A DNA stretch of 64,000 nucleotides. Source: a virus (Duplodnaviria; Heunggongvirae; Uroviricota; Caudoviricetes). The stretch is taken from IMG/VR virus record IMGVR_UViG_3300029517_000186; one strand, given 5' to 3'. The translations under genes and the position numbers were made by a program. This document shows, in pieces, positions 5,505 to 63,986 of the stretch. Position 1 is the stretch's first letter; each line of letters opens with the position of its first letter. The notes beneath the pieces are model-generated. The model saw only the letters and a program-made list of their open reading frames with translations, did no database searches and was not told the DNA's origin.

Positions 5505-6188
5505 ATGTCCAGAAAATCTAAGTATTCTATAGAACAGCGAGTACAAGCATGTGAAGACTATCACAATGGAACTCGTAGTTTAGAAGAAATATGTATAGCT
5601 CTCGGAACTACCAGAAAGAAAACTATCCGTGAGTGGTTAAAAAAATATGAGAAGTACGGAGTATCTGCTTTTCAGGAAAAGTCATATAACAAAAGTTATA
5701 CAAAAGAATTTAAAATTCAAGTAGTGGAAGAATATATAAGTGGTTATGGTTCACTAGAGGAACTGATTGTAAAATATGATATTTCTTCTACAACCCAACT
5801 ACGAAAATGGATTTCAGTGTATAATGCCAATAGAGAACTTAGGGACTATTGTCCAAAACCGGAGGTCTATATGGCAGAAGCAAGAAGAAAAACAAGCATT
5901 GAAGAACGCAAAGAAATCGTAAAGTATTGTATCGGACATAATCGTAATTATAAAGAAACTGCAAGTGCTTATGATGTCTCATACAATCAAGTCTATTCTT
6001 GGGTAAAAAAGTATGATGCACTAGGTGAAGAAGGATTAACAGATAAGCGTGGATGTCATAAAACGGATGAAGAGGTAGACGAATTGGAACGTCTTCGTCG
6101 GGAAAATGTACGTTTAAAGAAGCAACTCAAAGAAAAGGATATGTTAACGGAACTGTTAAAAAAAGTACAGGAATTCGAAAGGATGTGA
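5505..6188 (+). CDS. IS3-family transposase OrfA (HTH plus leucine zipper)
   Basis: 227 aa; two HTH regions; C-terminal LERLRRENVRLKKQLKEK zipper; AAGGGG RBS. Confidence 0.85.
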   Translation: MSRKSKYSIEQRVQACEDYHNGTRSLEEICIALGTTRKKTIREWLKKYEKYGVSAFQEKSYNKSYTKEFKIQVVEEYISGYGSLEELIVKYDISSTTQLRKWISVYNANRELRDYCPKPEVYMAEARRKTSIEERKEIVKYCIGHNRNYKETASAYDVSYNQVYSWVKKYDALGEEGLTDKRGCHKTDEEVDELERLRRENVRLKKQLKEKDMLTELLKKVQEFERM

Positions 6189-7150
6189 GGCTCGGAAAAC
6201 TTCGCTATAATTCGGAATTTATAGCAATAAAGTTTTTCTATGAAACAAAGAACTGGAGTATTAATTGGATGTGTAAACAGCTCGAAATATCAAGAGCTGC
6301 CTATTATAAGTGGTTGAATCGTGAGATACCTGAACAGGAAGCAGAAAATATGAAGTTGGCAGAACTTATAAAGGAGTACGATGAGCGCTTTAATCACATC
6401 CTGGGTTATAGAAGAATGACCTCTTGGATTAATCACTTTAACCATACTGATTATAAACCGAAGAGAGTACATCGAATTATGAAGAAGTTGGGTATTCATT
6501 CAGTCATTAGACGAAAGCAGAAAAAATATACTTCTTCGACACCGGAAGCAGTAGCTGAAAATAGATTAGGCAGAGACTTTTATGCAACTGCACCAAATGA
6601 GAAGTGGACAACTGATGTAACAGAGTTTAAGATTCCAGGTGAGAAAAAGAAACTTTATTTAAGTGCCATTCTTGACTTATATGATAGATACCCTGTTGCG
6701 TATGTTATCAGCACGAGAAATAATAATGAGCTCGTATTTAAAACCTTTGATAAAGCTATTGCCGCAAATCCTGAAGCTAAACCATTATTTCATAGTGATA
6801 GAGGTTTTCAGTATACAAGTAAGGTATTTCAAATGAAACTTAAGGAACATAAGATAGAACAATCTATGTCCAGAGTTGGACATTGTATAGATAATGGACC
6901 TACTGAAGGATTCTGGGGTATCATAAAATCAGAAATGTATCAGATGTACGATATAACAGATGAATCTTCATTAAGATTTGCAATAAAAGATTATATTAGA
7001 TTCTACAGTGAAGAACGACCACAAGACAGGTATCATTGCAAAACGCCACTAGATGTAAGAGCTGAAGCATTATCTACAGCAACACCACAACAGTATCTTA
7101 TTCCTAAAAATAAACGAATTGAAAAATATAAAGAGAAATGGTGTGCATAG
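6185..7150 (+). CDS. IS3-family transposase OrfB (DDE integrase core), made as an OrfAB fusion by -1 frameshift
   Basis: rve-type motifs WTTDVTEF, HSDRGFQYTS, CIDNGPTEGFWGIIKSE; overlaps orfA in the -1 frame. Confidence 0.85.
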   Translation: MRLGKLRYNSEFIAIKFFYETKNWSINWMCKQLEISRAAYYKWLNREIPEQEAENMKLAELIKEYDERFNHILGYRRMTSWINHFNHTDYKPKRVHRIMKKLGIHSVIRRKQKKYTSSTPEAVAENRLGRDFYATAPNEKWTTDVTEFKIPGEKKKLYLSAILDLYDRYPVAYVISTRNNNELVFKTFDKAIAANPEAKPLFHSDRGFQYTSKVFQMKLKEHKIEQSMSRVGHCIDNGPTEGFWGIIKSEMYQMYDITDESSLRFAIKDYIRFYSEERPQDRYHCKTPLDVRAEALSTATPQQYLIPKNKRIEKYKEKWCA

Positions 7151-7404: not shown

Positions 7405-7584
7405 ATGAATAGACTAAAGATGGGAGCCGGTTTGAATGTTCAAATTGGAAAAGCTTCTATCCGTTATAAGCAAGGTACTTTGCGTAATAAGTCACGCATT
7501 AAGTATAATTATGACGGTTATGAACTTTTTTGCATAATGCTAAAGAGCATTAAAAAAGCAACCTCTTTATGCTTGCCGGCGTAA
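7405..7584 (+). CDS. small hypothetical protein (59 aa) in a GC-richer insert
   Basis: AAGGGAG RBS; ATG at 7405; followed by the GCAACC...GGTTGC-TTTTT terminator at 7585..7600. Confidence 0.3.
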   Translation: MNRLKMGAGLNVQIGKASIRYKQGTLRNKSRIKYNYDGYELFCIMLKSIKKATSLCLPA

Positions 7585-7754
7585 GGTTGCTTTTTAAGTA
7601 ACTGAAAAATATAAGTGACATATCAGTTTATAGATATGTCTTTTTCTTGACATAAGTTTAAAGAAATCAAACATAAATGTCAAGAGTGTTTTTGATAATA
7701 AACGTGAATTTATTATATAATAAATTCTCCTTTAATATTAAAACTTAATATATA

Positions 7755-7767
7755 TATGACAGAAAAA
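7755..7767 (-). promoter_or_regulatory. orphan copy of the conserved promoter motif with no ORF downstream
   Basis: TATGACAGAAAAA; in the minus orientation it is followed by an AAAGGAGAA RBS but no start codon or ORF of 20 aa or more. Confidence 0.4.
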
Positions 7768-7788
7768 TAAAAATATACATAATAATTA

Positions 7789-7830
7789 AAAAACTGGTAC
7801 TAATTTATAAAAGAAAAGTACCAGTTTTTG
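7789..7830. terminator. bidirectional intrinsic terminator
   Basis: ACTGGTAC ... GTACCAGT stem flanked by an A-run and a T-run. Confidence 0.6.
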
Positions 7831-7870
7831 TATTTTAGGTGGCAATATTATATTTGAGTGAATTTCGTAA

Positions 7871-8356
7871 TTATTTCTGGTCTAATCCTTGCACCTTTCG
7901 TATTAAGATATATAGGACTTCTAAGTCGTCATCGCATTCTGCTAATGGATGAAAATAATCTCCTGTTAGTTTCATGTAATTTCTGCAATAAAAAGCCTTA
8001 GCACTTGGTAGTGTATGTAAATAAATAGCTTTTATTCCCATTGTATTTCTAGCCATTTTATCAATTATACCTATTATTTCAAAAATCTATGCAGCGATTG
8101 GTTTGTTTTCATTACCTTCTTTATAAAACACATTTTGATATTTTACATCGACACCAAACATGGTTATTTTAATTGCAGAAATTCCACATAATATATCATC
8201 TGTGTAGTCATTTCTTTCATCATCCACATCTCTGAAATAATAAGGTAATGAAGAAGCCGCTAAAGAAAAGTATGCTACAATTTCTTTCCCTTTAGTATTA
8301 TCAGTGTGTGTAACTAAATATGTTACAGCATCTCCTGTTTCCATATCCGAAAACAC
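7871..8356 (-). pseudogene. GNAT-like acetyltransferase fold (tentative) interrupted by an in-frame amber codon at 8087..8089
   Basis: ORFs 8087..8356 and 7871..8056 are in the same frame, separated only by TAG plus 10 sense codons; read through it gives a 161-aa protein; carries neither the element promoter motif nor a strong SD. Confidence 0.45.
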
Positions 8357-8587
8357 TTCATCTGAATTCAGGTTGATTATAGAAAGTCAGCCTTATTTCT
8401 ATGCAAATTTTTAGAATAAAAGAAAATACCTACCGCAGAATATCATCCACGATAGGTATTTTTGTTTTTACGACATCTTAACTAAATAGAGATTTAGTCG
8501 GCACTAATATCATTTTACATGTCAAGACTTGTGTGTGGTCTTAACTAAATGACATTGACCTATTGATAACTGCATTTTATTTATATA

Positions 8588-9616
8588 TTACATAAAAGAT
8601 TGTATATTATATCCTTTTCGTCTGAAACGAACTCTAATCTTTTTTATTGCTTTTGATTCAATCTGTCTGATTCGTTCTCTGGAAACATTCCATTCAGTAC
8701 CTATATCTTTTAAAGTTTTAACCTTTGAACCATATCCCATTCTACTCTTAATTACATATAATTCTCTAGGAGTGAGACAATCTTCAACTTCTTTCCAAAG
8801 CAGTTCATTCATTTCTTTTTGAATAATCGTATCTTCAACTTTAGGTTCAGGCACTTCTATATAATCAGCCAAACACGAATCGTCATGGCCTTCATCACTT
8901 TGAATAGGTGCATCTAACGAAACCAATTCATTAAAGCTCTGAATATGTACAAGCATTTCTTTAGTTAAAAGAGGATATCTTTGTTTTACTACATCATATA
9001 ATTCATCAATTGTAGGTTTTCTTTGAAGTTTATTAGTTAAATCCACAAATGTAGTCTTAACAAAAGAATCCTGTTCTCTTACATGTACAGGGAATCTAAC
9101 TAATAAATCATAATTGGCTAATTCTCTATATATACTCTGTCTAATCCAATGAGTTGCATAAGTTGAAAACGCATATCCTAATTTATAATCAAACATTTGT
9201 ATAGCTTTGTATAATCCGAAAATACCGGCCTGACATAAATCATCCATTTCAAAACTTTGCGTTTTAGCTGTAACAGCTTTAGCAATACTGATAACTAAAC
9301 GCATATTAGATAAAATCAATTTTTCTGTTATTTCCTTTTTCTTTTTAGGATGTTTTTTTATCTCTTCAAATAATTTAAGAGTTTCATCTTTGGATAAAAC
9401 CGGATAATCAGCAAATGATTTAATATAATAAGTTATATTATTTTCTAATAATAGTTTCTGTTTTTCATTTGAAATCTCTTTATCATTTAAAATATCGGTA
9501 TAATTATCCTCTGATAAAATATTTATGTTTTCTATTGGTTTATTTGTATCAAATAATTCATCAACATATTCATCTTTATTGTTTTTTTTATTTAATAATA
9601 AATTCTTATCTGCCAT
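8588..9616 (-). CDS. RNA polymerase sigma factor, sigma-70 family
   Basis: Region 2 motifs LVISIAK and YATHWIRQSI; region 4 HTH TLKDIGTEWNVSRERIRQIESKAIKKIR; AGAGGAG RBS. Confidence 0.9.
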   Translation of the reverse strand: MADKNLLLNKKNNKDEYVDELFDTNKPIENINILSEDNYTDILNDKEISNEKQKLLLENNITYYIKSFADYPVLSKDETLKLFEEIKKHPKKKKEITEKLILSNMRLVISIAKAVTAKTQSFEMDDLCQAGIFGLYKAIQMFDYKLGYAFSTYATHWIRQSIYRELANYDLLVRFPVHVREQDSFVKTTFVDLTNKLQRKPTIDELYDVVKQRYPLLTKEMLVHIQSFNELVSLDAPIQSDEGHDDSCLADYIEVPEPKVEDTIIQKEMNELLWKEVEDCLTPRELYVIKSRMGYGSKVKTLKDIGTEWNVSRERIRQIESKAIKKIRVRFRRKGYNIQSFM

Positions 9617-9628
9617 AAAAATCTCCTC

Positions 9629-10024
9629 TTAACATTGATGTCCTAGCATTTTTAATTCATTATTTGCTTCTATTTTCATTGTACATATTCTACTAATTGC
9701 ATTATATGTAAATTTAGATTGCTCTTCAAAGGTTCCTAATATATCTCGTTTAATCATAAGCTCTTTACATTTATCTGAAGACTCTTTGTGTAATTTCATT
9801 TCTTTTACCATTGAATCTAAAATAGAATGCATTGAGGAAAAATAGGTAAAATAATTTCCTACTTCACTCAATAAATTTCCTATTTCCAATAAATCTATTT
9901 CATCTGATCTAGGAATTTCTTTCTTAAAATTAATTAAATACCATTCATATAAATCCGTTGAAGAAGCTTCAAGGATATCACTTATAGACTTATTTTTTAA
10001 TTCATTATTCATATTTGTTTCCAT
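9629..10024 (-). CDS. hypothetical soluble protein co-transcribed between the CPBP protease and the sigma factor (candidate sigma partner)
   Basis: 131 aa; AAGGAG RBS; 3-nt gaps to both neighbours; no promoter of its own. Confidence 0.55.
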   Translation of the reverse strand: METNMNNELKNKSISDILEASSTDLYEWYLINFKKEIPRSDEIDLLEIGNLLSEVGNYFTYFSSMHSILDSMVKEMKLHKESSDKCKELMIKRDILGTFEEQSKFTYNAISRICTMKIEANNELKMLGHQC

Positions 10025-10027
10025 AAA

Positions 10028-10939
10028 TTATTGCTCCTTAATTTCTATATTGATATTTTCAAAACACTTAATTACAAAATAAATTAAACTCATTATGCAG
10101 ACTATTAAAATGCATACCTGTAAATATATATTTGTTATAAAAAACGTAAATGGTATTAATGCCACACAGTTTATTAGAATATGATATAAGCTGCTAAGTT
10201 TAATACCATATTTATCTCTTACAGCACCTAACAAATATCCGCCAAAAGCATATATAGGGAATAAAATAAAATTAAAATGAATTATTCCAAATAAAACTGC
10301 TTGGATTATATTTGCACATAATTTATTGTTGCTTGCTTTATATGCATAGCCATAAATTATATATCTAAAAGTCAATTCCTCAATAATAGGTGCCACAAAA
10401 GTTGCTATTATTGTAGATATAATTGTTTTTATTCCTAAACTTCCATAATCAATATTTGATACATTTACAAAATGCATTTGAATTCCTGAAATAAGCTGCA
10501 ATATTACAGAAGTTAATATGAAACAAAATACAAAATTCCAATTTACTACTAATTTATTTTTCATAAACAAATCTTTTTTATAATTGTAAAATGAGCTTTT
10601 TATACAAATAATGCACATAACAAACATTAATGTATATGTTGATATTGTGTAAATTAATCGAAATCCTTCATAATCTATTTTAGTTGAAATTCCTCCTGCA
10701 TCATTCATATACATATTTAATAGACTGTCTATAAATGTTGCAATAAACATAGAAAATAAAATTATAAAAACAGAAATAATAAATGGAATAAAAATCTTTA
10801 TATACTGTTTTGATTTTGAAAAGAAAGAATTACTTTTCATTTTGTTTTTTGCCATAAAATCCATATAAGAATTTAAATCATGCTTATTTTTTTTATTTCT
10901 TAATTCCTTAATATTACTGTTGTTGTTACTAAGTATCAT
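10028..10939 (-). CDS. CPBP-family (Abi/CAAX, PrsW-like) intramembrane metalloprotease
   Basis: Polytopic; motif 1 EELTFR (APIIEELTFRYII), motif 2 FGIIH, downstream conserved His; GGAGGA RBS. Confidence 0.8.
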   Translation of the reverse strand: MILSNNNSNIKELRNKKNKHDLNSYMDFMAKNKMKSNSFFSKSKQYIKIFIPFIISVFIILFSMFIATFIDSLLNMYMNDAGGISTKIDYEGFRLIYTISTYTLMFVMCIICIKSSFYNYKKDLFMKNKLVVNWNFVFCFILTSVILQLISGIQMHFVNVSNIDYGSLGIKTIISTIIATFVAPIIEELTFRYIIYGYAYKASNNKLCANIIQAVLFGIIHFNFILFPIYAFGGYLLGAVRDKYGIKLSSLYHILINCVALIPFTFFITNIYLQVCILIVCIMSLIYFVIKCFENINIEIKEQ

Positions 10940-10968
10940 ATATTTTCCTCCAACCTTTCTAATATATA

Positions 10969-10981
10969 TATGACAGATACA
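10969..10981 (-). promoter_or_regulatory. class II promoter for the CPBP-ORF-sigma operon
   Basis: TATGACAGATAC with TTTACATAAAAAAA placed so that ATGTAAA-N17-CTGTCAT on the coding strand. Confidence 0.55.
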
Positions 10982-11002
10982 ATTTTAAAAATCTTTACAT
11001 AA

Positions 11003-11036
11003 AAAAATACCGCTGCAATAAACAGCGGTAAAACAT
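11003..11036. terminator. intrinsic terminator
   Basis: TACCGCTG ... CAGCGGTA hairpin between A and T runs. Confidence 0.55.
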
Positions 11037-11051
11037 AAAATAAATATTAAA

Positions 11052-12737
11052 TTAGCATTTGCGTACTATTGAAGGGGCTGACATATCAGGGTTAATGAAT
11101 TTCTTACATAAATGTTCAATTCCAGTTGTTGAATCAAGCCAATATAAATAATCTCCATCAACGTCCACCAGATATTCATTAATAGAATCAAGAACATCGT
11201 TTACTTCGGAAACAGTACAAATAAATCTATATGAAGACTTATTTTTCTTTAAAGGTTTAACAGATTTAACAATAATCTGATATACAGTTTCGTCATCTGA
11301 AGATCTAAAATCATCTACTTGAATTTTCCCTGATAAACATAATTTAGCATCATTAACAAGTAAGTCTCTAATATTTGCATAATCCTTAGAAAAACATACA
11401 CCATTAATAGAACCTGTTTTATCTTCTACCTCAAAAGTTACCCATTCGTATCCATTTCTGTCCTTTCTTATAACAAGATTTTTAATTATACCAGATACAT
11501 CATTAACTTCTGTTGAAATATCAGAAATGGGATCTGTATAAATATTATACTCATCAATTGGATGCCCTGTAATATAAACACCTAACACTTCTTTTTCATC
11601 ATTTAGAATCTGACCTAAATCATCTTCTACATAATCAATATCTATATTTTCAAGATCATCTTCTAAGCTTTCTATAACTGTCTTAGCTGAATTGATACGT
11701 TTAATTATGGAATCCTTAGTTGGCATCTTTTTTGAAGTAACTTGAAAGGAAATATTTTCTTCTGAAATTTTTTCCTTAAACTCATCAAGATCAATATAAT
11801 CTTCCACAAATTCAATAACTTTACTTGCGTTTTCAATAAACTTACTCTTCTCTCTGATTTTCTTGATTGTATCCTGAATTTCTTTCATACAAATCATATC
11901 TAATGATATCATTGTTCTTGTATAACCAAGGCAATCAAAAGCACCTGCTTTAATTAAGGAACTTAATGCTTCTGCATTAATATTTGTTCGTTTGATAAAA
12001 TCCTTAATATCAGAATATTCTCCATTAGCATTTCTATCTTCAACAATTTTAGCTGCTTCTGCTCCAACATTCTTAATATTACTCAGACCATACAAAATAT
12101 TTCCATCTACAACATCACAATGTAAATTTGAAGCATTAATGTCCGGAGGCAATACCTTTACTCCAAAATCAAGAGCATCACTAATATCATCAGCGACTTC
12201 ATCAATCTTATCAGTATGATTTATTACATTTGTAAGATAATAAGCCGGATAATAATACTTAAGAAAAGCAGTCCAATATGATGTAACAGCATAAGCAGAG
12301 GCATGTGACTTATTAAAAGCATACTTAGCAAAATCAACCATCGCATCCCAGATTTTATGAGCAATTTCTTCTGGTATTCCATTTGCAATACAACCTGGTA
12401 CTAATGCTTCATTTTCTTTTTTAGTATCAGCATTGCCATATACAAAAGTGTGTCTTTCAGCATCAATTTCATCCTGATGTTTTTTTGACATAGCTCTACG
12501 GACTAAATCAGAACGCCCCCATGTATATCCTGCTAAATCACGAACAATCTGCATTACCTGTTCCTGATAAACTATCTGTCCATAAGTAGTTGACAAAATT
12601 GGCTCTAATTGAGGACATAAATATTTAATCTTAGATGCATCCTTTTTACCTTCTATGAAATCAGGTATAAACTTTTCAGGACCAGGACGATATAAAGCAT
12701 TCATTGCTATTAAATCTTCAATACCTGTTTTATTCAT
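11052..12737 (-). CDS. dnaE: DNA polymerase III alpha subunit (DnaE), C-terminal part of a split gene
   Basis: IEDLIAMNALYRPGP, YGQIVYQEQVMQIV, FAKYAFNKSHASAYAVTSYWTAFLKYYYP; begins exactly where the upstream ORF 18413..20962 ends in the DnaE alignment. Confidence 0.9.
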   Translation of the reverse strand: MNKTGIEDLIAMNALYRPGPEKFIPDFIEGKKDASKIKYLCPQLEPILSTTYGQIVYQEQVMQIVRDLAGYTWGRSDLVRRAMSKKHQDEIDAERHTFVYGNADTKKENEALVPGCIANGIPEEIAHKIWDAMVDFAKYAFNKSHASAYAVTSYWTAFLKYYYPAYYLTNVINHTDKIDEVADDISDALDFGVKVLPPDINASNLHCDVVDGNILYGLSNIKNVGAEAAKIVEDRNANGEYSDIKDFIKRTNINAEALSSLIKAGAFDCLGYTRTMISLDMICMKEIQDTIKKIREKSKFIENASKVIEFVEDYIDLDEFKEKISEENISFQVTSKKMPTKDSIIKRINSAKTVIESLEDDLENIDIDYVEDDLGQILNDEKEVLGVYITGHPIDEYNIYTDPISDISTEVNDVSGIIKNLVIRKDRNGYEWVTFEVEDKTGSINGVCFSKDYANIRDLLVNDAKLCLSGKIQVDDFRSSDDETVYQIIVKSVKPLKKNKSSYRFICTVSEVNDVLDSINEYLVDVDGDYLYWLDSTTGIEHLCKKFINPDMSAPSIVRKC

Positions 12738-12773
12738 TTTAAATTTCTCCTTTCAATTCATAACTATATAATT

Positions 12774-12786
12774 TATGACAGAAAAT
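12774..12786 (-). promoter_or_regulatory. conserved promoter motif for the dnaE C-part
   Basis: TATGACAGAAAAT, 35 nt upstream of the AAGGAG RBS and ATG. Confidence 0.55.
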
Positions 12787-12789
12787 TAA

Positions 12790-12816
12790 AAAAAGCGTCC
12801 AATTTTGGACGCTTGC
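12790..12816. terminator. intrinsic terminator
   Basis: AGCGTCC ... GGACGCT hairpin. Confidence 0.55.
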
Positions 12817-12823
12817 ATGAATA

Positions 12824-13129
12824 TTAAAAAGAATACTTGTTACATATATTTTCTTTTATATAAGTTATCAAATTTTTAGCATAATCTATTCTGCCTTTTA
12901 ATTTATCAATATCATTAATATCATATGAAACATTACCAGTAATACTAATATAAAAATCATCTTTTATGGTTTTAATTTCAATATCATAATATGGAATCTT
13001 TGGAGTAAAAAAGAATCTTATGACTTTACCTGTTCTTAAATCTCTTCTTAATAGAATTCTATATGTTTTATTATCGTATTCATCTATTATCCATGGACCG
13101 GATTCATATGTTCTAATAAAAGTTACCAT
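12824..13129 (-). CDS. hypothetical protein
   Basis: 101 aa; ATGA overlap with the upstream ORF. Confidence 0.5.
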   Translation of the reverse strand: MVTFIRTYESGPWIIDEYDNKTYRILLRRDLRTGKVIRFFFTPKIPYYDIEIKTIKDDFYISITGNVSYDINDIDKLKGRIDYAKNLITYIKENICNKYSF

Positions 13130-18412: not shown

Positions 18413-20962
18413 CTATGAACATAACTTCTTAAGGTTATTCCTCATACCGGCTGACTCAAACTGGAAAACATTCTTAGTTCTTCCTTTTGCATATACTTCT
18501 TTGTATACCTTATCAGCTTTAGGACCCTCTAATGGAATATTCATTACATCAATTACTTCTCCTGTATCTCTCTGAATCATTCTGAGTGTGTCAGTAATAA
18601 TTGTAAGAGTTTTTAATCCAAGAAAATCCATTTTTAATAATCCATTAGCTTCGCACTGAATCATGTCCATTTCTGTAGTTTTAATTCCCTTTTTTCCATC
18701 TCTAATAGGAATATAATCAGTAACATCATTACTATCATAAATAATAACACCTGCGGCATGTTGTCCGTATGTCGTAAGCATACCTTCACAATGAGCTGCA
18801 ATATTAAGAATAGAAATAGCATCTGGATTACTATTATATTCATCCTTTAAGAAATCTAACAAAGAAACGCTGTCCTGAATATTAATGCCTAATTCATCAA
18901 CCTTATTAGTATCTTTCATGCCAACAATATCTTCAAAATTAGTTGCTTTAGCAGGCACTTTCTTACGAATCTGATCTCCTAAAGATAAGAATTTCTTTTC
19001 ATCATCATAAGCTTTCTTTCCATAATATCTTGCAGCATCTCTGATAGCACCTTTAGCCTGCTGCCTTGATTCTGTAATAATTCCAACAACAGCTTCACTA
19101 CCATATTTAGCTCTTACATACTCAATTGTCTTTTCTCTTACTCCAAGAGCAAGATCGCTATCGATATCAGGCATACTTACTCTTTCTGGATTTAAGAATC
19201 GTTCAAAAATCAGATTATACTTAAATGGATCAATTCCGGTAATACCAAGTAAATATGTAACCAATGAACCGGCACCTGAACCTCTTCCAATGCCTATTCC
19301 AATTCCGGTATTATAATTGTGAGCCTTAACATACTCTTTTGCACCTTCAATTGTTAAAGGTACTTCTGATAGTTTATCCATAGGTACTAATCCACAAATT
19401 CTTCCATATTCCAGGAAGTCCTTTACAATTAAATGATAATCGGCAAAGCCCATCTGAATGATAATATTAAGTTCGTATTCCATTCGTTTCTGATGTTCTT
19501 CATCCCATCCTTTTCCGTTAGGATATCTCCAATTAATTCCCTTAATTGCTTCAGATCTTAATAATTCGTTTGAGTCCTTGTTCTTATCAAATACTGGATA
19601 ATGATTAGATTTTTCTGGAATATAAGCACATCTTTTTCCAATTACATTTAAGTTATTAAGTGCTTCTGCAACCTGATCATCTGTTAATATAGCTGATAAG
19701 GCCTGAGCAAGTTCGTAAGGTGTTTTTACATATAACTCTTTATCTGATTCCGACTCACTTATCTTAATAAATCTTAAAAATTTTGCTACATTACGCATAT
19801 CAATACTTCTATCAGAATTATCTGCCATATGTGCATCATTAGCAGCAACTAATGGGATATTATGCTTCCTTGCTAACTGAGCTAACACAGGATATGTCCT
19901 GCTTTCCATTTCAAGACCATGATTCTGAACTTCAATGTAATAATTACCTGCTCCAAAAATTTCCTGATAAAAAAGCATTGTCTTTTCTGCTTCAGACATT
20001 AATTCTATTGGGCTTTTCTTTAATGATTCATAATGCTGTATCTTATTTTCATGATTAATATATTCCTCTACCTTAAGACTTATATCCTTTAACTCGGCTT
20101 TCTTAGCATTAACTAATTTTCTGACATTAGGAATTTTATCTTTAGCTTCCAGAATTTTATTATTTATCTCCTCATATTCATTAATCAGTTTAATAAGCTC
20201 TGGATCATCATCATTTAAACACTTCCTTGCATCTCTTAATTTTCTTGAGATCTGTGTTCTTTCTGATTTAAGTTCCTTGGAATCACGAATATTAATTAAT
20301 TCATCTAAATCTGCCGATACCTTTTCAAATTCATCTTTAGCTGAAAGATATTCTTTATCATCAGGACTTATACAATCACGTATAACTAGCTCGTCTTTTT
20401 CAGTAGTATGCTGCTGTGCTTTTCTTTCTCTGTTAATCATTTTATCCAAAACATCATCTGATAATAATTGCAGAGCTGGTGCACCCGAAACGCAAGCTGA
20501 AGTTGCTATTATATCACCGTTAAAGTTATATTTCTTTAAATCTGATATTGTAATAACAGGCTTTCCCATTCTTTTTTCAGAAGCCTTAGAATTTAACTTA
20601 TCAATAATATGCTTGCCTCTTTCTGAAGTGGCTAACATAATCATATGGCCAATCTGCTCATTTATCTTAAATGGTGGCACTTCAATATAAGCCTCTACGC
20701 CATAAATGATATTAAAAGGATGTTCCTCAGTACTTATTTTCTTAGCGTAATCAATACATGTTTGCATTGCTGAAAATGATGCATGGTCCGTAACAGCAAA
20801 TTTAGTATATCCTGCATTAAATGCAGCATCTAAATAACTTTTAGGTTCATCTACGGCATCAAACAAAGAGCCTCCTGGATGGTTATGTTCACACACTGTA
20901 ACTCCTGACTCAATAACCTTTTTTGTTAATTCTCCAATTTTTACATGTTCAAACATTGACAT
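18413..20962 (-). CDS. dnaE: DNA polymerase III alpha subunit (DnaE), N-terminal part (PHP plus palm) of a split gene
   Basis: PHP VCEHNHPGG ... FAVTDHASF; palm GRGSGAGSLVTYLLGITGIDPFKYNLIFERFLNPERVSMPDIDSD; ends ...NVFQFESAGMRNNLKKLCS at the junction where the C-part resumes. Confidence 0.9.
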   Translation of the reverse strand: MSMFEHVKIGELTKKVIESGVTVCEHNHPGGSLFDAVDEPKSYLDAAFNAGYTKFAVTDHASFSAMQTCIDYAKKISTEEHPFNIIYGVEAYIEVPPFKINEQIGHMIMLATSERGKHIIDKLNSKASEKRMGKPVITISDLKKYNFNGDIIATSACVSGAPALQLLSDDVLDKMINRERKAQQHTTEKDELVIRDCISPDDKEYLSAKDEFEKVSADLDELINIRDSKELKSERTQISRKLRDARKCLNDDDPELIKLINEYEEINNKILEAKDKIPNVRKLVNAKKAELKDISLKVEEYINHENKIQHYESLKKSPIELMSEAEKTMLFYQEIFGAGNYYIEVQNHGLEMESRTYPVLAQLARKHNIPLVAANDAHMADNSDRSIDMRNVAKFLRFIKISESESDKELYVKTPYELAQALSAILTDDQVAEALNNLNVIGKRCAYIPEKSNHYPVFDKNKDSNELLRSEAIKGINWRYPNGKGWDEEHQKRMEYELNIIIQMGFADYHLIVKDFLEYGRICGLVPMDKLSEVPLTIEGAKEYVKAHNYNTGIGIGIGRGSGAGSLVTYLLGITGIDPFKYNLIFERFLNPERVSMPDIDSDLALGVREKTIEYVRAKYGSEAVVGIITESRQQAKGAIRDAARYYGKKAYDDEKKFLSLGDQIRKKVPAKATNFEDIVGMKDTNKVDELGINIQDSVSLLDFLKDEYNSNPDAISILNIAAHCEGMLTTYGQHAAGVIIYDSNDVTDYIPIRDGKKGIKTTEMDMIQCEANGLLKMDFLGLKTLTIITDTLRMIQRDTGEVIDVMNIPLEGPKADKVYKEVYAKGRTKNVFQFESAGMRNNLKKLCS

Positions 20963-26098: not shown

Positions 26099-26995
26099 CT
26101 AAATTACTGCACATTGCAAATTTAACCGGTTTATTATACTTACTACATGCTCCTTACACTTTTCAATTAAAATACATTTCCTTTTTTTATTAAGACATGC
26201 TTCTCCTGTAACGCCACTACCCGCAAATTGATCTAAAACTAATTCACCAGGTAAAGTAAAATATTCTAATAACTGTTCAAATAAAGCAACTGGTTTTTCT
26301 GTCTGGACATTCTTTAATTTATTAGGAATGGCCTGCACATTAAATTCAGTAGGCAGCATTCCATTAGCTCCACTCATAAATCTGGTAGGTACTCCATTTA
26401 TAACGCCTCTTTGCTTATCTGGTCTTAATGCTCTTGGCTTACCTTTACTAAAAATCATTATGTCTTCTGTATTTTTAGCTTTTCTTCCTGTATTACTTAC
26501 AAATGTACCTTTTTTCCATGCAACTTTTGCATAATACTTAAATCCTGCCTGTTCTGCCATCTTCTTAATCTCATATAAATAATCAAAATTATTTTCATTT
26601 TCTGCAGGTAAAATTTCTACTAAGAAACTACCTTCCTTTAATACCCTAGCTTTTTCCATAAAATCTGATAAGGTATATTTAAAACAATCATACTGAGCTA
26701 AATGTCTTGTTCCACCATTATTAGATTTCTTATCATCCCATGGATGATCAGTAATTATGCAATCCATAGATTCACTTTCAAAAACAGATAAATCTCTTCC
26801 ATCGCCTTCAATAAGAACTACATCATCTGTTACATATAGTCCTTTTGATAGTTTCTTAAATTCTTTACCTAAATTTTCATAAATTCTTGCTCTGACTGAC
26901 TCTTTTTGATATGAAAGATTAACAGCATATGCTTCTTTTAATGTAAACTGCTGTCCTGGTTTAAAAGCCGCTAATAGGTTTGATAAAATACTCAT
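26099..26995 (-). CDS. DNA methyltransferase (beta-class N4-cytosine/N6-adenine, PF01555-like)
   Basis: Motif IV variant CIITDHPWD near the N-terminus; motif I ELVLDQFAGSGVTGEA near the C-terminus. Confidence 0.8.
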   Translation of the reverse strand: MSILSNLLAAFKPGQQFTLKEAYAVNLSYQKESVRARIYENLGKEFKKLSKGLYVTDDVVLIEGDGRDLSVFESESMDCIITDHPWDDKKSNNGGTRHLAQYDCFKYTLSDFMEKARVLKEGSFLVEILPAENENNFDYLYEIKKMAEQAGFKYYAKVAWKKGTFVSNTGRKAKNTEDIMIFSKGKPRALRPDKQRGVINGVPTRFMSGANGMLPTEFNVQAIPNKLKNVQTEKPVALFEQLLEYFTLPGELVLDQFAGSGVTGEACLNKKRKCILIEKCKEHVVSIINRLNLQCAVI

Positions 26996-27008: not shown

Positions 27009-27875
27009 TTATTTTGTTTGATAAAGAAGATATGACAGAAAATTATTTACATTAGAATTTAAATTGTTATTTCTTATTACTAAAATATTTCTTATAACAA
27101 TTATGAAAAATATAATACTCATTACGATTAGACAAATATTTTGCAACATAACAGGCATAAATGAATACAATACACTACTTGCATTAACTCCAATATGAAT
27201 TAAAATAGAGGGCAATAAATTATCTGTTTTTATATATACATAGGCTAATATAATACCGAAAATAAATGCATAAGTGCTTTGAATAATATTAAAATGCACT
27301 AATCCAAAAACGAAAGCTGATATATAAATTGAGCTTACATCTGGTTTCTTAAAGAATTTGTTTTGCTTTATTATTTTTGTAATACCGTATCTAAATATTA
27401 ATTCTTCAACAACTGGCGTAATAACACCTGTTATTAAGAGTACTTGAAGCCAATTTCCGGTTACAGTAACATTCATCAAAGAATTATATGAGTTAGAAAC
27501 TAAATTATTAGGTAAGGAATCTATTACCACAGAAGCTAAAAAATTCATAATAATGCCTGTTAAAATAAATGTCTTGACATCTTTTAATGATAATTTTGAA
27601 ATAAATATGATTGATTTATTAACTTTATATTCTTTAAGCACAACAAACTCAAGTATTATAATGTCAGAAACAAATAATGCAGGCATAATTAATTCACTGA
27701 GCATACTAAGATAACTATATGAAAGTAAATTACCTGTTTCTATACATACATATAAATTATCATACCATTGTGAATCAGAAAACAATTTAAAAATAAATAC
27801 GCCCAATGTACATACAATTTGAGTAATAAGAAAGGCAAATACTATTCCAATAATCTTTGTAATTTGTTTAATCAT
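27009..27875 (-). CDS. CPBP-family (Abi/CAAX) intramembrane protease, second copy
   Basis: GGAGGT RBS and ATG at 27875 (MIKQITKII...); VVEELIFRYG, FVFGLVHFN, HIGVN. Confidence 0.8.
   Translation of the reverse strand: MIKQITKIIGIVFAFLITQIVCTLGVFIFKLFSDSQWYDNLYVCIETGNLLSYSYLSMLSELIMPALFVSDIIILEFVVLKEYKVNKSIIFISKLSLKDVKTFILTGIIMNFLASVVIDSLPNNLVSNSYNSLMNVTVTGNWLQVLLITGVITPVVEELIFRYGITKIIKQNKFFKKPDVSSIYISAFVFGLVHFNIIQSTYAFIFGIILAYVYIKTDNLLPSILIHIGVNASSVLYSFMPVMLQNICLIVMSIIFFIIVIRNILVIRNNNLNSNVNNFLSYLLYQTK
27031..27043 (-). promoter_or_regulatory. conserved promoter motif for the methyltransferase
   Basis: TATGACAGAAAAT; CTTTATCAAA box between the motif and the RBS. Confidence 0.55.
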
Positions 27876-55388: not shown

Positions 55389-55424
55389 ACAAAAAGCTCC
55401 CACCATTAAGGTGAGAGCTATAAT

Positions 55425-55590
55425 CAAAGTTGCTAGTAGAATTGTAAAATTCTATTAAAGTGTATCTTTACGACAAAATTACCGGCTTTAACAAAAGTGC
55501 TAGTCTTTGAGGAGGCATATATGTATGCCTAATATATACCGACAATATTTTATCACATTGTAAATTATAATACAATATTGATTTAATCAT
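55425..55590 (-). ncRNA. candidate small RNA unit (class II promoter to terminator, no ORF)
   Basis: Promoter at 55593..55626 and terminator at 55391..55422 bracket about 170 nt with no ORF over 20 aa; contains the palindrome AGGCATATATGTATGCCT and a CCUCCUC stretch. Confidence 0.25.
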
Positions 55591-55592
55591 TA

Positions 55593-60566: not shown

Positions 60567-60620
60567 GAACTACTCACAACCAACTATTGTTGGATGGAGT
60601 TTTTTGCTTAATTGCGATAA
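60567..60620 (-). repeat. copy 6 of the structured repeat element, directly after the stop of 60624..61340
   Basis: GAACTACTCACAACCAACTATTGTTGGATGGAGTTTTTTGCTTAATTGCGATAA; CCAAC/GTTGG replaces CCGAC/GTCGG, a compensatory double change. Confidence 0.7.
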
Positions 60621-61340: not shown

Positions 61341-61423
61341 AAATTACTACCTTGTTGCTATATTAGCAACTTCCTTTCTAAAATAATATTGAAGTTTTTA
61401 TTACACAAAACATCTAAAAATAA

Positions 61424-61460
61424 TATGACAGACATAAAAAATAAAATCTGTCATATATAT
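61424..61460. promoter_or_regulatory. inverted pair of promoter motifs (TATGACAGAC ... CTGTCATATATAT): divergent promoters
   Basis: Minus copy serves 60624..61340; plus copy is followed by an AAAGGAGGAAA RBS and ATG-TAG start-stop at 61491..61496, then the terminator at 61566..61600. Confidence 0.45.
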
Positions 61461-61600
61461 AAATAGCGTTTTATTAAAGGAGGAAATGTTATGTAGTTTT
61501 TTTTGATTAAAAATTAATTTAGTATTGTAGATTCAAAGACGGGTGAATTTGCAATAATTAAACATAAAAAGGTTGAGCTTTATTGCCCAACCTTTTTTTC

Positions 61601-61771
61601 TTAAGCTGTTATACAGCCTGTTATATGAGAATCATTAATATTGATTCTAATATTATTGTCTTCCAATTCCTTCGCTAAATCGAAAATGGAAAGCATTTCC
61701 AGATATTCTAAATATGAAATCATTTGTTTTCTTCCCTTAAGTAACATATCAACATACTCACTTGTACTCAT
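61601..61771 (-). CDS. small hypothetical protein (56 aa)
   Basis: AAAGGAG RBS and ATG at 61771; ends at the bidirectional terminator 61566..61600. Confidence 0.4.
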   Translation of the reverse strand: MSTSEYVDMLLKGRKQMISYLEYLEMLSIFDLAKELEDNNIRININDSHITGCITA

Positions 61772-61792
61772 ATATACTTTCTCCTTTTCATT

Positions 61793-62614
61793 TTACATAT
61801 CAAAGTTTCTAGTTATTCTTGCCGTTCTAAGGATAATGTCCTTTGTATTCTGATCAAGATTTTCTGCATTAATAATAACTGCTGTCTTATCATTGCTAAG
61901 CTTCATTTCTGGAGTAATCTTAGCGTACATTAATGTGGCTTCAAGACCGCCTATAACTGCATCTGCATTTTTATTAGCAGAAATCTTTAATACCATTTCA
62001 GAATCATCTGAACTATCATTAGGTGTTACTGGAACTGAAGATTCTGATTCTGATGATTCTTCTACTGGGTCAACATTTACTGTGTCTGATACATCAGTAT
62101 TTGAATTATTGTAAACAGCTTCAGATACATCTTCATTTTCACTTGAAACTAATTCATCATCGACCTGTTCATTATATTCTGGGACCTCTGTAATAACTGC
62201 TGTACTTTCTGATACCTGTGAATCATTATTTGCTTCTTCATTAATAGGTTCATTAATGGTATCAACAATAGTGTCAGCAATAGTGTCATCAACAGAATCA
62301 TTAGAAGTATCATCCTGATTCCAAGGCAATTCCTTTTCATCTAAAACTGGTTCTTCAACCATTTCAGTTATTTCTGATTCAGCAATTTTAGACGAGATTT
62401 TTTCTTTTTCTGCATTAATATCTTCAAGTGTTGGAGCAATTTCTTTTGCAACAACAGGAGCTTCTACATCTAAAACTGACTCCTTTGTATTTGCTCCAAC
62501 ATTATTAATTAATAATGCTGCCATTAGATTCTTTATTTCTTCAATTTTTGTATTTGGAATAACAATATGTACTCCATTGCCCTCTTCAAAAAGGCTTATT
62601 GTCTGCATATTCAT
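61793..62614 (-). CDS. highly acidic, low-complexity protein
   Basis: AAAGGAGCA RBS and ATG at 62614 (MNMQTISLFEEGNG...); D/E/S-rich middle segment; promoter at 62654. Confidence 0.6.
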   Translation of the reverse strand: MNMQTISLFEEGNGVHIVIPNTKIEEIKNLMAALLINNVGANTKESVLDVEAPVVAKEIAPTLEDINAEKEKISSKIAESEITEMVEEPVLDEKELPWNQDDTSNDSVDDTIADTIVDTINEPINEEANNDSQVSESTAVITEVPEYNEQVDDELVSSENEDVSEAVYNNSNTDVSDTVNVDPVEESSESESSVPVTPNDSSDDSEMVLKISANKNADAVIGGLEATLMYAKITPEMKLSNDKTAVIINAENLDQNTKDIILRTARITRNFDM

Positions 62615-62653
62615 ACTATATATGCTCCTTTCATTTTTTATTACTAAATAATG

Positions 62654-62666
62654 TATGACAGAAAAA
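62654..62666 (-). promoter_or_regulatory. conserved promoter motif
   Basis: TATGACAGAAAAAAAAA. Confidence 0.5.
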
Positions 62667-62707
62667 AAAATCAAACTGCAAAATTAATAAAAAAATAAAT
62701 TAATTAT

Positions 62708-62725
62708 AAGTGTATATATACACTT
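62708..62725. promoter_or_regulatory. perfect 18-bp palindrome AAGTGTATATATACACTT between divergent promoters; oriT candidate for the MobV relaxase
   Basis: Lies 55 bp upstream of the mob start; resembles MobV-type oriT inverted repeats with a GTGT core. Confidence 0.45.
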
Positions 62726-62741
62726 TATTATTTTTTCTGTC

Positions 62742-62757
62742 ATATCTTAATTAATAT
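62742..62757 (+). promoter_or_regulatory. conserved promoter motif in plus orientation (TTTTTTCTGTCATATC) for mob
   Basis: 34 nt upstream of the GAGG RBS and ATG of 62781. Confidence 0.5.
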
Positions 62758-62780
62758 TATTTGAAAGTTGAGGTATTTGA

Positions 62781-63986
62781 ATGTCAGATAAATCTTATAC
62801 AATTTGCAAAATCATGAAATTAAATTCACTAAATGCTAATGGCAGATATAGTGTTAGATCTGCAGGCGAACATAATTTAAGGGAGTATGTACCATATAAT
62901 TGTGATTCTGAAAAACAAAATTTAAATAAAGATATTGTTGAACTTCCTAAAATGCTTAATGGAAGCCATTACTCCTATCAGACTGTTGTAAAAAATGCAA
63001 TTAAAGAAATTCAAGATAATGGTACAATGGGAAAAGTTCGTCCTGATGCAGTTTATGCATTTGAAATTTGTCTAGGTTTTAATCCGGCAGATGGAAAGGA
63101 CTGGAAAGATATTATTTCAGAAAAAGACCTAGATAAATGGTGTCAGGAAAATAAAAAATGGCTTGAAGAGCGTTTTGGTAAAAACAATTTAAAGCATTTA
63201 GTATTACATATGGATGAATCAACTCCTCATTTACATGCTTTAATTGTTCCTATTAATAATAAAGGTAGGTTAAGTGCTAAATCATTTATTAATGGCCCGA
63301 CTGATTTATCAAAATTGCAGACTGAATATGCAAAGAAAGTAGGTTCACAATTTGGGTTATCAAGGGGTGTTTCTAAAAAAGAAATAAGAGCTTCTAAAGA
63401 ATTGGAAAATAAATTATATCCTAACTATTCTGATATATCTAAATTCAAAAAAGCCACTCTTGGTAAAATAATGGATGAAAGTGAAATAATAAAGGTTAAC
63501 CCGAAAGAATTGGATAGTAATGGGCATATTTTGCCATCTTACGAAGAAAGAGTGTTAGGTGAATTTCAGAATGTAAAATATCATTATTTAACTTTAGAAA
63601 ATTCATTACGCCAGGAATTAAAAGAAGAACTAAAGCAAGAAATAAAAAAAGTAGATACAGACTTTGAAAGGATTGCACTTGAAAAAGAAGAATTTGAAAA
63701 AGAAAAAAAGAAAAAAGATGCAGAGTTAAAACAAAAAGAAGAGGAACTTATTTCAAAAGAACATGAGTTACAGAAGCTATTAGGTGTATTAGAAAGTACA
63801 AAAAAATCAATCAGGGAAATCAAAAAAGATTATACATATTTTGAAACATTAAATCGTGCCCTTAAGCATGAATCTAATAAGGATATTGCTAAAGATTTAT
63901 ATAAACAGTTAAATAAGTTAGTTGAAGAACAGCATAAAAGAGATAAAGAAAATATTCATGCAATTAAACAATTTGATATAAGATAA
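62781..63986 (+). CDS. mob: MobV/Pre-family plasmid mobilisation relaxase
   Basis: N-terminal HNLRE motif; motif III HMDESTPHLHALIVPI; C-terminal coiled coil. Confidence 0.85.
   Translation: MSDKSYTICKIMKLNSLNANGRYSVRSAGEHNLREYVPYNCDSEKQNLNKDIVELPKMLNGSHYSYQTVVKNAIKEIQDNGTMGKVRPDAVYAFEICLGFNPADGKDWKDIISEKDLDKWCQENKKWLEERFGKNNLKHLVLHMDESTPHLHALIVPINNKGRLSAKSFINGPTDLSKLQTEYAKKVGSQFGLSRGVSKKEIRASKELENKLYPNYSDISKFKKATLGKIMDESEIIKVNPKELDSNGHILPSYEERVLGEFQNVKYHYLTLENSLRQELKEELKQEIKKVDTDFERIALEKEEFEKEKKKKDAELKQKEEELISKEHELQKLLGVLESTKKSIREIKKDYTYFETLNRALKHESNKDIAKDLYKQLNKLVEEQHKRDKENIHAIKQFDIR

Follow-up and report, generated by a model that had tools for sequence, protein, structure and literature searches.

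In Bacillus subtilis, the spoIIG operon carries a membrane protease gene upstream of a sigma factor gene, and RsiW-type regulation requires a single-pass membrane anti-sigma factor together with an ECF sigma factor. The extended -10 form recognised by Gram-positive sigma-A is TRTGn, and a T at position -7 is normally a key base for sigma-70-type factors. TGn extended -10 promoters have been described together with E. coli sigma-70 mutants, of which Q437H and T440I each suppress a T-to-C change at -12, while the G at -14 is read by H455 and E458 (PMC2613000). Jumbo phages without a polymerase of their own often encode sigma homologs for phage-specific promoters (review, PMC13282480).

The three genes considered here, encoding a CPBP-family protease, a 131-aa protein (ORF131) and a sigma factor, sit on an extrachromosomal element that is phage-like, low in GC and very large, with a gut Firmicutes host. 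The element comes from human gut metagenomes, where its contigs reach 320-812 kb, and has a size of at least 650 kb, of which the window (the whole stretch of DNA analysed, 64 kb) covers only about one tenth. No description of it was found in the literature searched, and a near-identity DNA search of plasmid and phage collections with positions 7500-13200 gave no match; protein-level searches recovered only RpoDs about 35% identical. Hodor conjugative megaplasmids have a GC content of 44-47% and a length of about 357 kb, with no sigma factor or promoter mentioned (PMC12934698), and membership of that group was ruled out by the 28% GC and the much longer contigs of the element. A reading of the locus as a defence system was also rejected, nothing being found beyond a generic sigma homology to MzaA. 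The features of the locus are listed below in the direction of transcription.

11008..11030, minus strand: intrinsic-terminator-like hairpin (9 pairs, 5 GC) followed by TTTTTTT; upstream boundary
10994..11001, minus strand: upstream box TATGTAAA at about -41 to -34, separated from CTGTCATAT by exactly 17 nt; putative functional element
10968..10977, minus strand: core promoter TCTGTCATAT, interpreted as being of the extended -10 kind (T-17 C-16 T-15 G-14 T-13 C-12 A-11 T-10 A-9 T-8)
10960..10961, minus strand: predicted transcription start (T at -1, 10961; A at +1, 10960)
10028..10939, minus strand: CPBP / Rce1-like glutamic-type intramembrane protease, 303 aa, 7 hydrophobic segments, cytoplasmic N-terminal tail of about 48 aa
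9629..10024, minus strand: ORF131, 131 aa, soluble, acidic and all-helical with a long helical hairpin; uncharacterised family
8588..9616, minus strand: diverged RpoD-type sigma factor, 342 aa (disordered acidic segment 1-59; regions 1.2/2, 60-170; region 3, 177-229; region 4, 260-334)
8423..8462, minus strand: intrinsic-terminator-like hairpin (17 pairs) with a T-rich tail, about 125 nt past the sigma stop codon; downstream boundary

The CPBP, ORF131 and sigma genes form a single operon with one motif promoter. They are separated by gaps of 3 and 12 nt, and each possesses its own Shine-Dalgarno sequence (GGAGG, AAGGAG and GAGGAG, respectively). The upstream hairpin terminates the preceding gene, which encodes a DnaE C-terminal part. 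Terminator-like hairpins numbered three against 0.4 expected, and none was present inside the three-gene unit, between 11008 and 8462. The original prediction of three closely spaced genes behind a single promoter was confirmed in its coordinates, strand and gaps as well as in its promoter, with one copy of the core at 10977..10968 and no plausible copy within the trio at up to two mismatches. Tight packing was not special to the trio, as 15 of the 69 adjacent same-strand ORF pairs in the window (ORFs of 45 aa or more) were at most 20 nt apart. All three proteins were conserved in diverged relatives, and the genes are therefore real. Their order was kept in two further lineages, in which the sigma factors were only 44% identical, and in the relative L009 four genes were inserted between the CPBP gene and ORF131. 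The relatives also encoded, after the sigma gene, a single-pass transmembrane protein with only about 20 cytoplasmic residues, which is absent from the window.

The sigma factor matched Sigma70_r2 (PF04542; 2.2e-14, 53.4 bits, cut-off 24) and Sigma70_r4 (PF04545; 9.4e-11, 41.5 bits, cut-off 24.1), and the Pfam models for regions 1.2 and 3 gave no match. The RpoD_Cterm model aligned to it over positions 3-231 of 238 (1e-52), and regions 1.2 to 4 were folded in the AF2 model, including helices spanning 58-103 and, at 177-229, a domain of three helices (pLDDT 84-89). Residues 1-59 were disordered in the same model, contained 14 D/E against 8 K/R, were poorly conserved between lineages and showed no match to the region 1.1 family PF03979. 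With 179-181 bits, the protein fell below the NCBIfam equivalog cut-offs for RpoD/SigA (354-572 bits); these missed cut-offs and the lack of a folded region 1.1 suggest that it is not an ortholog of the housekeeping RpoD/SigA. Outside its own clade, its best matches were at most 40% identical, bacterial RpoDs included. It matched the phage sigma family phrog_351 at 1.4e-54, and the only additions from scans of viral and metagenome sequences for sigma lineages were a relative at 51% and two unrelated sigma factors at 29%. Its sequence was conserved in regions 2 and 4.

The motif of the element, a T-rich stretch followed by TCTGTCAT, was present in 41 copies against 2.6 expected, 33 of them on the coding strand. 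The form CTGTCATAT occurred 30 times in the window (0.8 expected; 27 on the coding strand), and one of these copies, at 10968-10976, lies 28 nt ahead of the CPBP ATG. The predicted 5' UTR of 21 nt includes the GGAGG Shine-Dalgarno sequence. Across 37 coding-strand copies, the block from -17 to -10 was essentially invariant, with T-17 in 33/37 copies, A-9 in 31/37, T-8 in 29/37, T-1 in 34/37 and a purine at +1 in 35/37, and position -7 was occupied only by A or T. Because of the conserved T(-1)/purine(+1) located 7-8 nt downstream, the motif was placed in the extended -10 register with a C at -12, which gives it the layout of an extended -10 promoter of the TGn kind with no -35 element. Matches to the canonical sigma-70-type promoter were below chance in the region (13 vs 24.4). 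The upstream box TATGTAAA was common to 7 of the 27 CTGTCATAT promoters in the window, with an identical overall length of 34 nt in all seven; the box (TATGTAAR) was found at six other units, among them those of RecA, UvrD, flotillin and DUF5688 genes. In L008 and L009, the orthologous promoter possessed TATGTGAA at the same spacing, and a distant element (L016, 39% GC) had the same CTGTCAT core with another upstream box and CC after the core.

Two other readings of the motif were discarded. An alternative register, with TAT as -12 to -10, would place TC rather than TG at -15/-14, and its A is variable in weak variants. Recognition by the host sporulation sigma factors (sigma-E/K, 'CATA' -10 elements) was dropped because L016 keeps CTGTCAT yet continues with CC. 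To our knowledge, no extended -10 promoter type with C at -12 has been reported before.

Residues of the sigma factor are given in what we take to be the E. coli numbering, the expected residue types being found at every named position. Position 433, a W in 46 of 47 RpoD homologs, was H, H and N in the element sigmas; position 440, a T in 37/47, was Y, Y and I, and L in L008; position 457, a V in 36/47, was R in all three element sigmas; and I460 was replaced by D. The element sigmas were unchanged at H455, E458, R584, E585, R588 and Q589, as well as at Q437, so that the residues reading the TG (H455, E458) and the -35 element are retained, and region 4.2 was fully canonical. These DNA-contact residues appear compatible with the motif, the retained H455/E458 with its TG and the T440 to Y/I/L change with its C-12. 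The substitutions coincide exactly with the positions that set specificity for -12 and the extended -10, which indirectly supports the sigma factor as reader of the motif. Its earlier designation as the candidate reader was a reasonable one on these indirect grounds, since its DNA-facing residues differ from those of RpoDs at specificity positions. The motif and the sigma clade co-occurred in 3/3 lineages examined; as both are conserved across these three lineages, their covariation is uninformative.

The reading favoured here, to which we give a probability of about 0.5, is that the three genes constitute one transcription unit whose sigma factor, the part open to functional interpretation, reads the element's own promoters, CPBP and ORF131 being co-transcribed neighbours. 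Most likely, the sigma factor would bind the host core RNA polymerase and direct it to extended -10 promoters lacking a -35 element, with the consensus T-17 C T G T C-12 A-11 T A T-8, and transcription would start 7-8 nt downstream of the extended -10. The specificity would come from the clade-specific DNA-facing changes in regions 2.3/2.4 and 3.0 (T440 to Y/I/L, W433 to H/N, V457 to R and I460 to D), with the TG readers H455 and E458 kept. As the sigma operon lies behind its own promoter type, its expression would be self-reinforcing, although a sigma factor transcribed solely from such a promoter would face a bootstrapping problem on entering a new cell.

A possible, if less favoured, alternative is that the sigma factor reads another promoter class (e.g. 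a temporal one, situated elsewhere on the element) and that the TCTGTCAT promoters are read by another element sigma factor, an element RNA polymerase or a host sigma factor. Invariance of this degree between -17 and -10 is seen more typically in promoters of dedicated phage polymerases; the seven consecutive invariant bases exceed typical -10 elements and also fit a dedicated element RNA polymerase or a factor encoded outside the window, which holds only about one tenth of the element. The lack of a conserved T at -7 points the same way, as does L016, where the core is present and no sigma factor of the element clade was found in the 12 kb of contig covered. Region 4.2 is canonical though the promoters have no -35 element, and this domain may serve other promoters. 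Against this alternative, the sigma substitutions fall at the very residues facing -12 and TGn and go in the same direction as the T440I suppressor, and the TG at -15/-14, the A at -11 and the pyrimidine/purine start 7-8 nt further on are those of a sigma-70-family register. Moreover, an HMM check found no other sigma factor, and no recognisable RNA polymerase was present, in the window (large unknown proteins included) or in the fetched loci.

The first gene of the operon encodes a protein matching the Rce1-like family PF02517 (1.5e-15, 57.7 bits, gathering cut-off 22.4), as do its orthologs and a paralog. Together with a multi-pass topology of seven hydrophobic segments (by the crude Kyte-Doolittle method), this match agrees with the CPBP membrane protease originally predicted. 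The EExxxR, FxxxH and HxxxN motifs were intact (E187-E188..R192, F217..H221 and H253..N257), and the seven named residues were invariant in four CPBP sequences 24-43% identical, including the EExxxR/FxxxH catalytic residues that had been singled out for checking. Judged from its sequence, the protease is probably catalytically competent. Its NCBIfam scores were far under the equivalog cut-offs, and it is therefore no ortholog of any named subfamily. The element possesses a second CPBP gene, paired with a DNA methyltransferase gene, the two copies being 24-30% identical. Public annotations name close copies of the protease 'YdiL' or 'lysostaphin resistance A-like'. The description of the protease as PrsW-like did not hold: PF02517 was the only family reported at E<=10, with no match to PrsW (PF13367, MEROPS M82), a separate family with merely structural similarity to Rce1/CPBP.

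The ORF131 family comprises about 150 clusters and occurs in phage-like gut elements; GTDB genomes contained no ORF131 relative. The profile searches proposed with the prediction matched Sigma70_r2/r4 in the sigma factor and PF02517 in the CPBP protein, and the Pfam search with ORF131 matched nothing. ORF131 had been proposed as a soluble partner, or anti-sigma factor, of the sigma factor; its solubility was upheld, with no transmembrane segment detected (maximum Kyte-Doolittle score 0.55), but the anti-sigma role was not, as it showed no sequence or fold similarity to known anti-sigma classes (ZAS/RsrA-like, RseA-like, FlgM, SpoIIAB, AsiA, Rsd). Distant ORF131 loci were gathered by a profile homolog search and contig look-ups, and in 5/5 of these relatives the surrounding 6-8 kb contained neither a sigma nor a CPBP gene (HMM check for L016-L018). 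Linkage of ORF131 to the sigma gene was found only in the three closely syntenic lineages.

These results bear on the self-contained switch originally proposed, in which ORF131 would hold the sigma factor inactive and CPBP would destroy ORF131 on a signal, as PrsW acts on RsiW. The close co-transcription of the three genes, their order kept alongside sigma factors of such low identity and the invariant catalytic motifs are compatible with this model, as is the acidic and helical character that ORF131 shares with several small sigma-binding proteins. The model is nevertheless quite unlikely: without a transmembrane segment, ORF131 does not qualify as a substrate of the RsiW type for an active site buried in the membrane, and it resembles no anti-sigma class; its distant relatives lack neighbouring sigma and CPBP genes; and it is far better conserved between lineages than the sigma factor it would have to track (62% vs 44%). 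The protease is not PrsW and its paralog is paired with a methyltransferase, four genes separate it from ORF131 in L009, and the sigma factor is RpoD-like with a region 3, its best matches being RpoD models, rather than ECF. The CPBP gene beside the sigma gene gives no ground for reading a PrsW-like switch.

Processing of the sigma factor itself, as in the spoIIGA-sigE pair, appears extremely improbable. Here the sigma factor would be an inactive pro-protein, processed or tethered by the upstream membrane protease through its disordered N-terminal 59 residues. A membrane protease gene does precede the sigma gene in one operon, and the sigma factor does possess a disordered extension that varies between lineages. 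This extension is long, acidic and variable; it recalls a linker or a degenerate region 1.1 rather than a pro-sequence of the short amphipathic kind, and the sigma alignment shows no conserved cleavage motif. Neither SpoIIGA nor SpoIVFB is related to the CPBP enzymes, and ORF131 lies between the two genes, with four more in L009.

CPBP and ORF131 are thus better regarded as co-transcribed neighbours of the sigma factor than as a protease/anti-sigma pair, and they probably act independently of it, although the tight co-transcription retained where the sigma factors are 44% identical leaves room for a link. One such link would be a new membrane-linked control of an RpoD-type sigma factor by CPBP, ORF131 and the single-pass membrane protein of the relatives, with the sigma factor redirecting the polymerase of the host to extended -10 promoters that have C-12. 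We consider this very doubtful; if true, a gut element of at least 650 kb would carry a new type of self-contained switch for taking over transcription. Also unlikely is an account in which ORF131 is a replication/recombination accessory (e.g. a UvsY-like mediator), CPBP serves membrane immunity or exclusion, and their place beside the sigma gene reflects an inherited order downstream of dnaE.

Under the favoured reading, in which the sigma factor reads the TCTGTCAT promoters, the element would show the classic altered-specificity change at T440 occurring in nature. This would also explain how the transcription of about 600 genes of a very prevalent gut element is separated from that of its host, through a 10-bp extended -10 element. 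The promoter logo provides a handle for annotating transcription units on the element and its relatives.

Compared with the sigma-W/RsiW/PrsW system of B. subtilis (in which RasP follows PrsW), the locus shares a sigma gene near a multi-pass protease of the broad Rce1-like structural superfamily. It differs in the protease family (PF02517, not PF13367/M82), in the sigma factor (RpoD-like, whereas sigma-W is ECF) and in the third protein, RsiW being single-pass with an anti-sigma domain and ORF131 soluble and unrelated; there is no site-2 protease here. With the bacterial CPBP proteins YdiL, LyrA/SpdC and the MrtJ-type sorting proteases, the protease has in common PF02517, the EExxxR/FxxxH/HxxxN motifs and a multi-pass topology, but it is element-encoded, in two diverged copies, and its substrate is not evident.

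The promoters resemble the extended -10 promoters of Gram-positive sigma-A in T-17, TG at -15/-14, A-11, independence from a -35 element and a start lying 7-8 nt past the hexamer. They differ in having C rather than T at -12 and C rather than a purine at -16, no conserved T at -7, and a block from -17 to -10 that is invariant instead of degenerate. As in the E. coli sigma-70 T440I and Q437H mutants, a region 2.4 change facing -12 goes with C-12 (PMC2613000), the element promoters having an invariant C at the presumed -12. The element sigmas are natural, however, carry the changes at W433, V457 and I460 in addition, leave Q437 unchanged, and have a specificity predicted from these residues.

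There is also a likeness to the jumbo-phage sigma-70 homologs (phrog_351), which combine an element-encoded RpoD-like sigma factor with an element-specific motif before most genes. In contrast to these, the present sigma factor is at most 40% identical to any protein outside its clade and is co-transcribed with CPBP and a small helical protein, its associated promoters are of the C-12 extended -10 type and the contigs span 320-812 kb.

The trio was confirmed on the minus strand of the window at the positions originally predicted, with gaps of 3 nt (303-aa/131-aa) and 12 nt (131-aa/342-aa), and each gene was preceded by its own Shine-Dalgarno sequence (3/3). Pfam searches assigned the 342-aa protein to Sigma70_r2 and Sigma70_r4 and the 303-aa protein to the Rce1-like family (PF02517).

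Features of the three-gene unit and its flanks (window coordinates)
11030-11008, minus strand: terminator-like hairpin, upstream flank
10028..10939, minus strand: ORF, 303-aa protein (CPBP protease)
9629..10024, minus strand: ORF, 131-aa protein (ORF131)
8588..9616, minus strand: ORF, 342-aa protein (sigma factor)
8462-8423, minus strand: terminator-like hairpin, downstream flank

A copy of the element promoter motif CTGTCATAT was located at 10968-10976, 28 nt 5' of the first ATG, and neither a plausible promoter core within the trio nor a further terminator-like hairpin between the two flanking ones was found. With a single promoter outside the genes and hairpins only at the flanks, the trio is, to judge from sequence, a single transcription unit; the predicted operon is real.

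The 303-aa protein is CPBP/Rce1-like with seven hydrophobic segments, and the predicted catalytic residues EExxxR and FxxxH, together with HxxxN, were invariant in all four CPBP sequences aligned (24-43% identical). The description "PrsW-like CPBP protease" held for its CPBP part (PF02517); PF13367 (PrsW) was unmatched even at E<=10, and PrsW, a separate family related to Rce1 in structure only, was rejected as its identity. A second CPBP/Rce1-like gene (27009..27875, minus strand; 24-30% identity to the first, varying with the alignment) lies nowhere near a sigma gene. Its neighbour, 13 nt past its end, is a gene for an N6/N4 DNA methyltransferase (26099..26995, minus strand), whose CTGTCATAT promoter sits within the 3' end of this second CPBP gene.

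ORF131 is soluble and acidic, without TM segment, and was confidently predicted (pLDDT 87.7) to be all-helical, with a long helical hairpin as its core structure. It had no sequence match in Pfam, NCBIfam, PHROG, PADLOC or PDB; an exhaustive profile search placed it in a family of ~150 clusters of 115-135-aa proteins. Five distant members were placed on 80-140 kb contigs, where no sigma or CPBP gene lay closer than 6-8 kb (0/5), and a local HMM check of three of them found no sigma-like ORF nearby (3/3).

The gene order DnaE-C (the C-terminal DnaE part upstream of the trio), CPBP, ORF131, sigma was retained in two further lineages (loci L008 and L011), with identities to the window proteins of 68-70% (DnaE-C), 62-63% (ORF131), 44% (sigma) and 40-44% (CPBP). 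As these lineages are syntenic far past the trio, common ancestry suffices to explain the order, and function is not needed. At L009, another diverged relative, four small genes separate the CPBP gene from ORF131. All relatives carry a fourth gene 3' of sigma (L008 11633-12640; L011 11478-12452), whose ~330-aa product has a single TM helix, at the N terminus, and matches no family. The window is without this gene; in its place are the terminator and two short ORFs (89 and 61 aa; 7871..8356, minus strand), neither matching a Pfam family, that on visual inspection resemble a disrupted gene.

DnaE (Pol III alpha) is itself divided: a break within the finger domain yields an N part of 849 aa (18413..20962, minus strand) and a C part of 561 aa (11052..12737, minus strand), with no intein-like extension seen at the start of the latter. 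The parts are separated by 5.7 kb and about ten genes in the window and are adjacent in relatives (L008 4511-8936; L011 3032-8999); in L011 the N part is split again by an HNH endonuclease gene.

The sigma factor aligned with RpoD models across regions 1.2 to 4, scoring far under the equivalog cut-offs, and matched the phage sigma family phrog_351. Relatives in its own clade showed 98% and 51% identity, and the best matches outside were ordinary bacterial RpoDs (<=40%). In the AF2 model (50-sequence alignment, mean pLDDT 73), residues 1-59 were disordered, 60-170 formed a folded region 1.2/2, 177-229 a three-helix region 3, and 260-334 region 4. The original prediction had read the trio as a self-contained sigma/anti-sigma/protease switch. 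Of that interpretation, which holds in part, the switch is not supported, because the protease is of the wrong family (not PrsW), the sigma factor is of the wrong class, and ORF131, the proposed anti-sigma partner, is soluble, unlike any anti-sigma, and not linked to sigma genes across its family. That the three proteins are functionally connected in some way is still conceivable.

The window (28% GC, nearly all genes on one strand) had no near relative in plasmid and phage collections. Its exact proteins were found again across human-gut metagenomes, on contigs that number in the hundreds; the longest are 650-812 kb at 28% GC and none is >1 Mb. Taken at face value, these lengths would put the element level with or above the largest phage genome on record (735 kb; PMC7162821). 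Fragments are filed in IMG/VR as viral, and one NCBI bin is labelled Lachnospira pectinoschiza. The element's genes include the split DnaE, a DnaG-type zinc ribbon, two UvrD helicases, RecA, RecJ and a 5'-3' exonuclease, alongside a class A PBP, GGDEF, HD and PARP proteins, flotillin, the methyltransferase and many ORFans; relatives carry HNH endonucleases within dnaE, and YopX and SocA/Panacea genes. Gene content of this kind suggests that the element is extrachromosomal, phage-like and huge, and that its host is a Firmicute, a host that the strong Shine-Dalgarno usage would fit. A Hodor megaplasmid was ruled out, and no published description of the element was found in the literature. An IS3-family insertion sequence (HTH and rve transposase ORFs; 5505..7150, on the opposite, plus strand) is present in the window and the gut contig L003 but missing from L001 and L002, two contigs that show no other difference, and is therefore polymorphic.

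The window contains 30 copies of CTGTCATAT, where 0.8 would be expected (27/30 on the coding strand). Genes without the exact 9-mer mostly had one-base variants instead, giving TCTGTCAT as the invariant core (41 copies against 2.6 expected; 33/41 on the coding strand).

Bases flanking 37 coding-strand copies of CTGTCAT
Directly 5': T, 33/37
First base 3': A, 31/37
Second base 3': T, 29/37
Following six bases, 3' of the 9-mer: variable, A/T-rich
Seventh base 3' of the 9-mer: T, 34/37
Eighth base 3' of the 9-mer: purine, 35/37

With transcription starting at this purine, the motif would span -17 to -8, with TG at -15/-14, C at -12 and A at -11, a register corresponding to an extended -10 promoter with C replacing the usual T at -12. 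No conserved -35 hexamer was found at these promoters; TATGTAAR lay exactly 17 nt upstream in 7/27 CTGTCATAT promoters, including that of the trio, and the orthologous trio promoter in L008 and L009 had TATGTGAA at identical spacing.

In L016, a distant element (39% GC, 140-kb contig) with a 29% identical ORF131 homolog, promoters read tttttCTGTCATCC (1818, 4931, 8270 and 11161, plus strand), with a palindromic box CTATATAGAAA ~19 nt upstream. As they keep CTGTCAT, the core is more widespread than the detectable sigma clade.

Several motif promoters have further features. On the window's minus strand, a conserved ~60-nt leader (TTATCGnAnnnAGCAAGAAAACTCCATCCGACAATAGTCGGTTGTGAGTAGTTCA) lies between promoter and Shine-Dalgarno of six unrelated genes, among them UvrD-2, flotillin, guanylate kinase and RlaP (centred near 60603, 46877, 34925, 32849, 25552 and 17383). 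The leader forms a hairpin of 11 pairs, one of them compensatory. It had no Rfam match, permissive mode included, and could be a cis-regulatory RNA of a new kind or a leader that binds a protein. Another minus-strand promoter, with a TATGTAAA upstream box (box start 55625, core end 55592), precedes ~200 ORF-free nt and a terminator hairpin, followed only afterwards by the PBP gene's separate promoter, which makes ~55390..55592 (minus strand) a candidate small non-coding RNA. Plus-strand copies at 61448 and 62737 oppose minus-strand copies in a divergent promoter region; coding strand and GC skew both change over within ~61400..62800, which might be a replication origin or module boundary.

The element sigmas were compared with 47 RpoD homologs (E. 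coli numbering). The -35-reading helix (R584, E585, R588, Q589) and the TG readers H455 and E458 were the same in both, and four other positions differed.

Residues differing between RpoD homologs and element sigmas
T440: T in 37/47 RpoDs; Y, Y, I in element sigmas (L008: L)
W433: W in 46/47; H, H, N
V457: V in 36/47; R in 3/3
I460: I in 39/47; D in 3/3

A T-to-C promoter mutation at -12 is known to be suppressed by T440I and likewise by Q437H, and -14G is read by H455/E458 (PMC2613000). The residue pattern thus fits the promoter pattern, T440 being changed where the motif has C at -12 and H455/E458 kept where it has TG, and this specific, indirect support makes the sigma factor a credible reader of the motif, as originally proposed. 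It is a further element-encoded sigma-70 homolog, of unusual predicted promoter specificity, and resembles those of large phages, where sigma factors encoded by the element are known to occur together with promoters of their own (PMC13282480).
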